Below, piece by piece: positions 46,379 through 48,446 of a stretch of 64,000 bases of DNA. The translations under genes and the position numbers were made by a program. The DNA comes from a virus: positions 3,658 through 67,657 of the IMG/VR virus record IMGVR_UViG_3300035661_000056. One strand, 5' to 3'. How positions within the stretch are numbered: the stretch's first letter is position 1; each line of letters begins with the position of its first letter. The notes beneath the pieces were generated by a model. That model did no database searches, was not told the DNA's origin, and saw nothing but the letters and a program-made list of their open reading frames with translations.

Positions 46379-46381
46379 GAA

Positions 46382-46475
46382 AATTCTAGAATATGTGATG
46401 CTCAGATTCACCTTACGGTGAAGGGTTTGATTATAGTCAGAAAGTAAGAAGTAAGAGCATCTATCGCTAAGAATT
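46382..46475 (-). ncRNA. Y RNA-like element 4
   Basis: AAUUCUUAG-CGAUA-GAUGCUC-UUACUUC...GAGCAUC-ACAUAUU-CUAGAAUU. Confidence 0.65.
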
Positions 46476-46485
46476 AAGAATAATG

Positions 46486-46553
46486 CCTGTAACAGGTATA
46501 ACCGAACGTTTTTAGAAAACAAAATTAAGAAGTAACGGTTATTATCAACAAGG
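46486..46553 (-). ncRNA. Y RNA-like element 3
   Basis: CCUUGU-UGAUA-AUAACCG-UUACUUC...CGGUUAU-ACCUGUU-ACAGG. Confidence 0.62.
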
Positions 46554-46555
46554 AC

Positions 46556-46637
46556 TTAGATTGTTAGAACAATAAGGAGTAAAAGGAGATGGTTTAAAAA
46601 GCGAAATACCTATTACTACCGCTATCTAACAGTCTAA
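46556..46637 (-). ncRNA. Y RNA-like element 2 (more divergent)
   Basis: UUAGACUGUUAG..AG-CGGUA-GUAAUAGG-UAUUUC...CCUUUUAC...UUGUU-CUAACAAUCUAA. Confidence 0.5.
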
Positions 46638-46659
46638 ATCCTCGAAAGGATTTAAAGCT

Positions 46660-47060
46660 TCAATTTTGGACAAGGGCTGGCTACCTTTAGAGCATGAATT
46701 AATGCTGCACTCCCTGGTTCTGATGGGCTGACTACCATTCCTAGCGTACATTTATTTAATTACTTAATTACTGAGCTGGGTTCCGTTGATAAGACGCGTA
46801 GGACTGACTACCTACTAAAGTACTGATCCATATTTGGAGTTATCAGCTCCGAGTTACCCAATCTAGGCCTAGTCTCGGTTTATAGCTTTGTCGTCAGATC
46901 ATTAACATACTAGAGCATCCGAGTTGGGTATTAGTGATAGGTAAGATATAGTGAGTTACGAGGTATAGCTTACTCTAGCACGTATTAGTAGTACCGCTGT
47001 TAACGGCTTCAGGAATTCCGGTCCTCTTGACTACCTTAGTAGCAATCAGTACATACCACC
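46660..47060 (-). ncRNA. Unidentified ~400-nt structured RNA downstream of Ro60
   Basis: No ORF in the track; long-range helices and three hairpins sharing the loop UAGYCAGY. Confidence 0.55.
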
Positions 47061-47063
47061 TAT

Positions 47064-48446
47064 TTACCTACTATTTTCACTTTCACGAATATAGTCTACC
47101 ATAGACTCCGAGAATCCTGTAATAGTAATCCATTCATTACTATTAATGCCGTTCCTATAAGAGCCTACATTAGCAATGTAATTTTGACCTTCTTTTCCAA
47201 GACGCTTAGCCTTAGATGGATCAAAATTACGGCCCGATAGACTTGTATCCATTTCGTCAGTGAAGACAATAACACGATCTACAATGTTGGAATTTTCTTT
47301 ATCGGCGATATAGGACATTGTTTGCACAAAGAAGATTCCTCCTTCTCCAATTTTAAACCGTACTTCAGGAGAAGTAATATACTCAGAAAGAGCAAATCCA
47401 CGACGAGTGGGGATAAGCATTGTTGCGTGTCGGCGAGTAAAATCGTCACCTGCCGTAGCATAGATAACAACATCTTCACAAATTTCCCGAGCTAAAATAG
47501 CTAAGGCACATGCTGCATCAATACGTGTAATATCAGACTTACCTGATACTTTATCCCGCATTGATCCACTAGTATCAACTACTAGAACTGTGCGCCCAGG
47601 CAGTTTCTCTACGGTAGACAGAGAGCGAAACATCATAGCTTCTAGCATATCCTCAAGTTGAGGAACAATACGTGCTGCGGCAATATAACGGAAAGGAAGA
47701 ACCTTATCCACATTTACACTAGCTGCGTAAGTTCTGATTTCAGACTCAGGTACACCAGCTTGAGTCATATTACGCAAATTACGTAGAAACGCTAAAGCAC
47801 CTAGTTTCTTTTCACTCATTAGTCGAGAGAAAGTTTCGGCCTTGTCTGCTCCACTAGAAAGCTGCACTTCCCAAGTGTCAGGAGTTGCTAATTCCTGATT
47901 AGCAACACGTTTGAACAGAGCTTCTTGTTCTTCATCCTTAGGCTTAACATGAGACAAGAACATAACATCTCGTATAGAAACGTTAGCGGAGGCCTTGTTA
48001 TATTTAGCTAGCTGGTACTCGTTAAATTTAACGAAGGCCTGTGCAAGTCCCTTTTTTACTTGATTGGCAATAGGGGTTTTACCCTCCATCCAGTACAAGT
48101 TAAGAAACTCTCCCATTTCATCTGCTCGTTGACATACTTCATTAAGTACGGAGGCTTTCAGCTTTCCAATACGAGCAAGCTCACGAACAAGCAATAGAGG
48201 CACATGACGTAGCTTATAGATATGACGTGCAGTAATTGCAAGTTCGGCTACCTTTTCAGGAGCAACCTTAGGGACTAGGGATTTAATCAAATCTACATGG
48301 CTTACACCATCTAAATAGAATTGATTCTCCCATAGCAAGGAAGCCAGAACTAAACGATTCAATTGCTTTTCAGCAGAGATGCTATTAACTAGCGTACCTA
48401 CACCATTAGACTCCATACCGCGAATACGACGATTTAAACTGGACAT
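47064..48446 (-). CDS. rsr: Ro60/Rsr (TROVE + vWA) RNA-binding protein
   Basis: LRHVPLLL, QRADE, KKGLA.AF.KFNEYQLAKY, TWEV.LS, LRNLRN, LPFRY; MIDAS DTSGSM and FTDE. Confidence 0.93.
   Translation of the reverse strand: MSSLNRRIRGMESNGVGTLVNSISAEKQLNRLVLASLLWENQFYLDGVSHVDLIKSLVPKVAPEKVAELAITARHIYKLRHVPLLLVRELARIGKLKASVLNEVCQRADEMGEFLNLYWMEGKTPIANQVKKGLAQAFVKFNEYQLAKYNKASANVSIRDVMFLSHVKPKDEEQEALFKRVANQELATPDTWEVQLSSGADKAETFSRLMSEKKLGALAFLRNLRNMTQAGVPESEIRTYAASVNVDKVLPFRYIAAARIVPQLEDMLEAMMFRSLSTVEKLPGRTVLVVDTSGSMRDKVSGKSDITRIDAACALAILAREICEDVVIYATAGDDFTRRHATMLIPTRRGFALSEYITSPEVRFKIGEGGIFFVQTMSYIADKENSNIVDRVIVFTDEMDTSLSGRNFDPSKAKRLGKEGQNYIANVGSYRNGINSNEWITITGFSESMVDYIRESENSR

Follow-up and report, generated by a model that had tools for sequence, protein, structure and literature searches.

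The three hairpins with a UAGYCAGY loop that lie between the Ro60 gene and the Y-like RNAs of this phage are copies of one conserved, previously undescribed motif. They are found in the window, by which we mean the whole 64,000-nucleotide stretch of DNA analysed here; its source record is viral, 67.6 kb long and 64% complete. We hypothesise that the 400 nt following Ro60 are a chain of separately folding and separately evolving RNA modules, and not one big RNA, and that the UAGYCAGY hairpins within this chain would have a docking-leader role. Taken jointly, these two proposals are given a probability of about 0.4.

On the minus strand of the window the order is promoter-like site, TROVE/Ro60, a 685-nt spacer, tRNA-Ser, tRNA-Trp, Hsp20, ClpP and terminator-like site (Table 1), and the window as a whole carries a dense array of 15 tRNA genes. 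Among PDB sequences, the predicted Ro60 protein matches that of a Thermus phage (9KOP/9L5Y, E 7e-18). Searched by tblastn it finds 95 phage records, with identities of 40-47% among the matches listed, and no close relative was found among 185,579 bacterial and archaeal genomes. The first-pass annotation had placed a structured RNA on the Ro60 strand, in a region free of ORFs and not assignable to any family. All three statements are borne out: the features are on the minus strand, there is no ORF of note, and Rfam 15 at gathering threshold finds only tRNAs in the window, while the region stays without a match even at E<=10. Nor did blastn find a match to the 685 nt in 50,697 phage records. The scan found no promoter-like or terminator-like site inside 46379-47063, which makes it plausible that the spacer is transcribed together with Ro60. 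Of the sequencing runs listed as containing the stretch, none is an RNA run.

Table 1. Features of the Ro60 locus in the window, ordered along the minus strand. Positions are those of the window; where two ranges are given, they are the two strands of a helix.
Feature	Position	Strand	Details
Promoter-like site	48619-48591	minus	scan
Ro60 (TROVE) gene	47064..48446	minus	460 aa; Pfam TROVE, E 7.5e-12
Spacer	46379-47063	minus	685 nt; no ORF of note
Module A	46986..47073	minus	about 88 nt; closing helix UAGUAG 47073-47068 / CUACUA 46991-46986
Long-range helix GUACUGAUU/GAUCAGUAC	47052-47044 / 46828-46820	minus	9 bp, in the sequence
Module A, variable hairpin	47048-47041 / 47035-47028	minus	
Module A, hairpin AGGA/UCCU	47025-47022 / 47014-47011	minus	
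Module A, hairpin GCCG/CGGU	47007-47004 / 46996-46993	minus	7-nt loop, anticodon-loop-like
13-bp helix	46983-46971 / 46917-46905	minus	3 G-U pairs; window-specific
Module B core	46855..46930	minus	closing helix UACCCAA 46930-46924 / UUGGGUA 46861-46855
Module B, S1	46921-46917 / 46899-46895	minus	CGGAU/AUCUG; H-type pseudoknot
Module B, S2	46916-46912 / 46889-46885	minus	H-type pseudoknot
Hairpin GGAG-CUGAUAA-CUCC	46836..46850	minus	4 bp, present
Hairpin module type II (variant)	46788..46829	minus	P2 46815-46811/46802-46798; loop UAGUCAGU 46810-46803
Hairpin 1	46815-46798	minus	loop UAGUCAGU
Hairpin module type I, copy 1	46703..46753	minus	P1 46750-46746/46710-46706; P2 46738-46735/46726-46723; loop UAGUCAGC 46734-46727
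Hairpin 2	46738-46723	minus	loop UAGUCAGC
Hairpin module type I, copy 2	46656..46701	minus	P1 46698-46695/46662-46659; P2 46687-46684/46675-46672; loop UAGCCAGC 46683-46676
Hairpin 3	46687-46672	minus	loop UAGCCAGC
Two-state junction and first Y-like RNA	46552..46654	minus	
H1, short hairpin	46654-46648 / 46641-46635	minus	
Long basal stem of first Y-like RNA	46641-46625 / 46568-46552	minus	z -4.15; 0/200 shuffles as good
Terminator-like site	45645-45618	minus	scan

Related loci were collected by a search with the Ro60 protein, giving 8 viral and 34 metagenome loci with Ro60 identities of 42-74%. All loci with enough flanking sequence have the same order, namely Ro60, a non-coding stretch of about 250-1200 nt, and tRNAs. 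Where counts are given below out of 33, these are the related loci that include the 3' end of Ro60.

The hairpin module consists of a helix P1 of 4-5 bp, a 5' internal loop, a helix P2 of 4-6 bp closed by a G-C pair, the UAGYCAGY loop, and a 3' internal loop, with P1 placed around P2 at a fixed position directly before a conserved GC. The stems vary between copies, while the loop is flanked in every copy by G on its 5' side and C on its 3' side. The eight loop positions and this closing pair are invariant or Y-only in all 22 seed copies (described below) and in 13 further distinct copies. In the window, GGTAGYCAGYCC has three exact sites in the region and one site with one mismatch elsewhere in the 64 kb. 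The number expected in 64 kb is 0.39, and only one of 100 shuffles reached four, so that the loop motif is beyond chance. The earlier observation of three hairpins with different stems and the same loop is thus upheld, and the motif recurs in relatives: 31 exact sites of the strict pattern GUAGYCAGNC lie downstream of Ro60, shared among the window and 21 of the 33 loci. A full-text literature search found no description of the motif. The text of one survey of 10,006 candidate viral RNAs (PMC10690425) makes no mention of Ro60 or TROVE, and its supplementary tables may list overlapping candidates.

For the seed, 24 copies were delimited, L002 and L004 (long insertion) were left out, and the remaining 22 were aligned by sequence only (alignment A1). 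In A1, 88.8% of cells are paired, compared with 60.0% in shuffles (none of 500 as high) and 21-40% when the partners are slid, and nine of the ten pairs, from P1 and P2 together, change on both sides. The seed sequences were cut three bases outside P1 helices that had been picked by eye for complementarity, and P1 is therefore favoured in A1. When single sequences were tested, P1 was no better than shuffled flanks, and the case for P1 is its covariation only. A covariance model built from the motif (R1) was then run against 260 kb on both strands at E<=1, and returned 29 matches, all of them on the Ro60 strand downstream of Ro60. A further 17 matches outside the seed, 13 of them distinct, came from loci fetched by DNA patterns; in these 13, in an alignment fitted to the model, 94.5% of cells are paired against 75.2% in shuffles and 23-47% with slid partners. 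The compensatory changes and the loop conservation that the first-pass annotation had proposed to look for in homologues are therefore both seen, in that P1 and P2 covary and the loop is invariant.

G-U pairs are present in both P1 and P2. These are mismatches on the other strand, and RNA is therefore favoured as the form in which the module acts. Taken alone, the hairpin modules are thermodynamically weak (z +0.55, +1.11 and +0.79). Their internal loops differ between subtypes, which makes a common tertiary fold uncertain. Pairing of the loop with a nearby site was considered and rejected: there are 29 sites complementary to the loop in cis, with 28.4 expected, and this lack of enrichment argues against a local pseudoknot or kissing partner.

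Two of the window copies belong to type I and score 47.5 bits (copy 1, E 6.6e-10) and 44.5 bits (copy 2, E 4.6e-09) with R1; the helices of both also appear in the MFE fold. Among strain variants, that at 46748 turns a U-G pair of P1 in copy 1 into C-G, and that at 46706, from one low-depth contig, breaks the end pair of the same helix. The variants listed in copy 2 (46664, 46670, 46671 and 46676) all fall outside both helices, and 46676 affects only the last Y of the loop. The third copy is of a variant type II, which starts with a conserved leader, GAUCAGUACUU; leader and hairpin are common to L011, L014, L016 and L020. R1 gives no more than weak, partial matches of 14.9-17 bits to type II in L014, L016 and L020, and the window copy is not listed among its matches. 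In L010, L016 and L137 a hairpin inside module B, recognised by eye, has a G-C-closed loop UAUCCAGU or UAAUCAGU, differing from UAGYCAGY by one letter, and the hairpin motif may be broader than the R1 model.

A hairpin with the loop motif is found downstream of Ro60 in 22 of the 33 loci and is missing from 11. The module is restricted to one group of uncultured phages with genomes of ~100 kb; R1 does not find it in the Ro60 loci of the cultured Ralstonia RsoM2USA, Microcystis Mvi-JY20 and Xanthomonas Tenjo phages. An exact pattern for one motif subtype occurs in four viral contigs and nowhere in 185,579 bacterial and archaeal genomes. A tandem-hairpin pattern gave at least 107 stretches in viral contigs, of which three (L045, L074, L137) are confirmed by R1 among the matches listed; the unconfirmed stretches are consistent with chance. 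There are 13 phage records with an R1-confirmed module. Ten carry Ro60 and three do not, so that the tie to Ro60 is strong and not absolute; one of the three, which is 96% complete, speaks against an obligatory tie. In all three Ro60-less records the module follows a tRNA, and in two of them it is followed by the H1/long-stem element described below and then by a small ORF.

A small ORF beginning MSxGGKGSKPRP stands after the module and Y-like elements in L002 (3852-4097), L155 (8648-8869), L003, L025, L037 and L156. It has no Pfam family above cut-off. It has no match in the window's record (64% complete), and was rejected as a consistent partner of the module.

Some further features of these loci may be recorded here. 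On the minus strand of the window, 46097-46162 matches the ROSE_3 RNA thermometer at a score below threshold (27.5 bits, cut-off 43; E 0.0037), and the match stops at the start codon of Hsp20 (phage gene 45653-46102). ROSE elements repress heat-shock gene expression (Rfam description), and it is plausible that the phage Hsp20 is under an RNA thermometer. A tmRNA is found by the beta and permuted tmRNA models (88-168 bits) in L014 (4940-5314), L016 (5939-6290) and L023 (4624-4993), about 1-2 kb downstream of Ro60 and within the tRNA array; Rfam models at gathering threshold find none in the window. Three loci lacking the hairpin module (L006, L007 and L028) have, in the first 40 nt after the Ro60 stop, what reads by eye as a near-consensus promoter (TTGACA, 17 nt, TATAGT/TATAAT), which precedes a Y-like RNA and tRNAs. 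In two of them, L006 and L028, an 87-nt tRNA-Met call about 262-348 nt past the Ro60 stop has an insertion in its variable region (by eye). The insertion holds GUCGAAAG, which is a Y-RNA box of the form GNCGAAN0-1G, and the element could be a tRNA/Y-RNA hybrid.

The hairpin module is one of several units in the region, and it is their distribution that argues for a chain. Relatives have one to three hairpin modules, with or without two other units that we call modules A and B, in orders that vary, and most relatives lack A and B. In the closest complete relative found, which is 104 kb long with terminal repeats and has a Ro60 of 67% identity, just one hairpin module separates Ro60 from the Y-like RNAs; in L045 module A is accompanied by a minimal module B and by two hairpin modules; and in L011 the order is reversed, a type II module coming before module A. 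In DNA contigs of related strains from a like habitat (microbial-mat and sediment runs), 142 nt of the window (46711-46854) are replaced by 83 other letters, which is a module swap at the level of strains. A loose end at the junction of the replaced piece (run X3) reads another UAGCCAGC hairpin.

Module A lies at the head of the chain in the window. It contains, besides its closing helix and three hairpins, a conserved joining stretch. In an alignment by sequence only of eight copies, from the window and seven loci (A3), 92.4% of cells are paired, compared with 82.7% in shuffles and 27-52% with slid partners. Changes on both sides are seen in three of the four pairs of the last hairpin and in two pairs of the closing helix, and an alternative 5' strand closes the module equally well. 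The core searched as an exact string in viral contigs gave no match, the pattern being too strict. The RNA had been described as starting at the Ro60 stop; module A instead begins at 47073, inside the last Ro60 codons, which overlap its 5' strand. A fourth UAGUCAAG, at 47034-47027, is merely part of the variable stem of module A and was rejected as a hairpin copy.

Two observations concern the 5' part of module A. The conserved segment AGUAGGUAAAUAGG (47073-47054 in the window; also in L011, L012, L015, L023 and L045) has stops in all three frames, and by eye the Ro60 ORF ends at one or other of the AGUAGGUAAAUAGG stops in the window, L023 and L045; such an arrangement would let module A follow any ORF. 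From 47052 to 47017 the window reads GUAC, the variable hairpin, and then AGAGGACCGG. We take this to resemble the sarcin-ricin loop of 23S rRNA, with the hairpin replacing part of the tetraloop.

Module B is an H-type pseudoknot of two helices, S1 and S2, within a closing helix. Six sequences (window, L010, L017, L018, L023 and L137) were aligned by sequence only (A4), and 91.7% of cells are paired, against 78.2% in shuffles and 27-43% with slid partners. All five pairs of S2 change on both sides, and S1 is nearly invariant. The closing helix fell out of register in the automatic alignment and was scored sequence by sequence. It corresponds to a pairing of UACCCAA with a downstream UUGGGUA that had been suggested earlier; the complementarity is indeed present and gives 7 bp in the window, a length matched by 10 of 500 shuffles, but in relatives the helix is only 4-5 bp and not significant singly. 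The 13-bp helix reported in the same place has fared less well. It is present in the window and in both the MFE and the centroid folds (z -1.86; 9 of 200 shuffles as good), but it is not perfect, its 3' strand overlaps S2 of module B, and inspection by eye found no counterpart in L023, L045 and L137, relatives that share the flanking modules.

At the other end of the chain, the last hairpin module always sits directly 5' of a helix with two possible states, with the 3' strand of its P1 abutting H1, a short hairpin. The first Y-like RNA has at its base a long stem that uses the 3' arm of H1 as its 5' strand, and the two pairings are exclusive. For 13 of 20 loci an automatic search returned both pairings: H1 has 7-9 bp, and the 3' arm of H1 also pairs over 15-18 bp with a strand about 70-80 nt downstream, compared with a mean of about 8 in shuffles. 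In the Ro60-less locus L155 the long stem is scored as terminator-like and is followed by a small ORF; that of L156 is not called a terminator by the scan. In the window, no U-run follows the long stem and the scan finds no terminator-like site there, so that a termination switch is unlikely to be the mechanism in the window; it may be in L155. The Y-like array itself (46379-46655, minus strand) shows an AGCG/AGUG-type box followed by a UUAC box, placed within its long stems or behind them, a layout seen also in relatives and in Microcystis phage Mvi-JY20.

We hypothesise the following. The whole stretch would be transcribed from the Ro60 promoter. A trans-acting factor, most probably a protein, would dock on the invariant loop, and occupancy of the module would bias the choice between H1 and the long stem. 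This bias would in turn guide folding, processing or read-through of the downstream RNA. With three modules in a row, the site in the window would be multivalent: an identical loop repeated on different stems looks like a recognition site, and would fit multivalent docking.

A different proposal, which we regard as possible and somewhat unlikely, is that the hairpin modules and modules A and B act in trans as partners of Ro60, in the manner of Y RNAs, being cut from a precursor, with loops that would hold Ro60 or an effector, for instance a nuclease of the host. It corresponds to the scaffold or sponge idea of the first-pass annotation. It would account for the fact that, in every Ro60-bearing locus having them, the modules lie within 700 nt of Ro60 and on its strand, and for the presence of Ro60 in most module-bearing phage records (10/13). 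Bacterial Y RNAs adjoin Ro60 and are processed from one precursor (PMC4201824), and those of YrlA type (RF02553; Chen et al. 2014, PMC4201824) are described there as having a GNCGAAN0-1G box near the 5' end, the proposed contact with Ro60. The region resembles them in adjoining Ro60 on the same strand (within about 4 kb, a position that counts towards a Y RNA of YrlA type), in being clustered and in standing beside tRNA-like RNAs, and the modules at 46379-46655 have a YrlA-like layout, with a basal stem and the UUAC box after the AGCG/AGUG box. The hairpin modules and modules A and B, however, are without the GNCGAA box, a T-arm, a D-arm and any match to the YrlA or tRNA models. There is no GNCGAA on the minus strand of 46379-47073, which covers the entire 685-nt spacer and with it the Y-like array; the three minus-strand matches in the locus are all inside the Ro60 ORF. 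Neither the YrlA model (threshold 69 bits) nor a tRNA model gives a match in 46379-47063 at E<=10, and elsewhere in relatives the YrlA model scores 31.2 and 28.7 bits.

Phages offer a closer comparison. The Ro60 of a Thermus phage binds two phage Y-like RNAs and forms complexes with host PNPase (PMC12135203), and these RNAs, Yrl1 and Yrl2 of phage phiLo, have their place upstream of Ro60 and were selected for a bulge containing a CGAA motif (PMC12135203). As in phiLo, the window has phage small RNAs beside a phage Ro60, and its Ro60 matches the phiLo protein. By contrast, the RNAs of the region are downstream of Ro60 and lack the CGAA motif. Against a role as Ro60 partners there is also the distribution: the UAGYCAGY module, unlike YrlA, occurs also in phage without Ro60, where it stands between a tRNA and an ORF, and the hairpin is missing from a third of the Ro60 loci (11/33) and from the three cultured Ro60 phages. 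The docking-leader reading, in which the module acts on the RNA next to it, is the one we prefer.

A more specific version of docking, and in our view a doubtful one, makes the module the sensing part of a phage riboregulator belonging to a new class. A factor on the loop would set which exclusive helix forms, gating the Ro60-partner Y-like RNAs and tRNAs or, in Ro60-less phages, an ORF; the window would have three sensors stacked, and module A may mimic an rRNA loop. Leader RNAs with exclusive helices are well known as the expression platforms of riboswitches and attenuators, and as the put-type antitermination RNAs of HK022. The module is like these in being a conserved structured unit directly 5' of two exclusive helices, the longer of which scores as terminator-like before an ORF in L155. 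It differs in that the longer helix in the window is the stem of a Y-like RNA and is not called a terminator by the scan, and the region has no likeness to any Rfam leader.

The modules might also be passive punctuation of a long precursor, that is, protective or cleavage-site hairpins between the Ro60 mRNA and the small RNAs, with no dedicated partner. They do lie on the boundary of a coding region or tRNA with the RNA gene that comes after it, and a tRNA array as dense as that in the window requires processing. Nevertheless, the loop and its closing pair are invariant while the stems vary freely, which exceeds the need of a hairpin for stability, and the hairpins are weak. We consider punctuation alone improbable.

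Very improbable is a single RNA of ~400 nt with a global fold closed by GUACUGAUU/GAUCAGUAC, which is how the first-pass annotation had read the region. The 9-bp helix does exist, and is found in the centroid folds of both the 401 nt and the 685 nt. The 401 nt, however, have a z of +1.34, their fold being equalled or bettered by 95 of 100 shuffles (for the whole 685-nt spacer z is -0.90), and relatives hold the pieces in other numbers and orders. The strands of the helix belong to separate modules, the 5' strand being the joining stretch and variable stem of module A and the 3' strand the type II leader. L016 and L011 have both modules and, by eye, no such complementarity between them, and modules A and B are in any case missing from most relatives. 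Two smaller elements claimed for the same fold are likewise present in the window and not in relatives: the GGAG-CUGAUAA-CUCC hairpin, with its anticodon-like loop, has no counterpart by eye and is treated as unsupported, and the CCGAG/CUCGG helix is not kept, again by eye, in relatives that share the flanking modules. Large RNAs such as GOLLD and ROOL do occur in phages near tRNA genes. The region differs from these in having no Rfam match and in being made of units of 45-90 nt that shuffle independently.

A role of the hairpins at the DNA level, such as that of a single-strand promoter or origin, is scarcely credible: covariation alone cannot separate DNA from RNA hairpins, but both helices contain G-U pairs, whose counterparts on the other strand would be A-C mismatches, the hairpins lie without exception on the strand that is transcribed for the flanking genes, and the 64-kb window has them in one cluster only.

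Ro60 has been well studied, together with its partner RNAs, in animals and a few bacteria; in phages, to our knowledge, almost nothing is known of either. The modules are a new addition among the non-coding RNAs of Ro60 loci, a kind already known: in uncultured phages of ~100 kb, covarying modules without an Rfam match separate Ro60 from an array of Y-like RNAs and tRNAs. They add at least three candidate RNA families, namely the hairpin module, module A and the module B pseudoknot. If they prove to be punctuation only, their value would lie mainly in a better annotation of phage tRNA regions. If the hairpin is a docking or switching element, its 8-nt loop would be a handle for finding how phage Ro60 particles are controlled or assembled.
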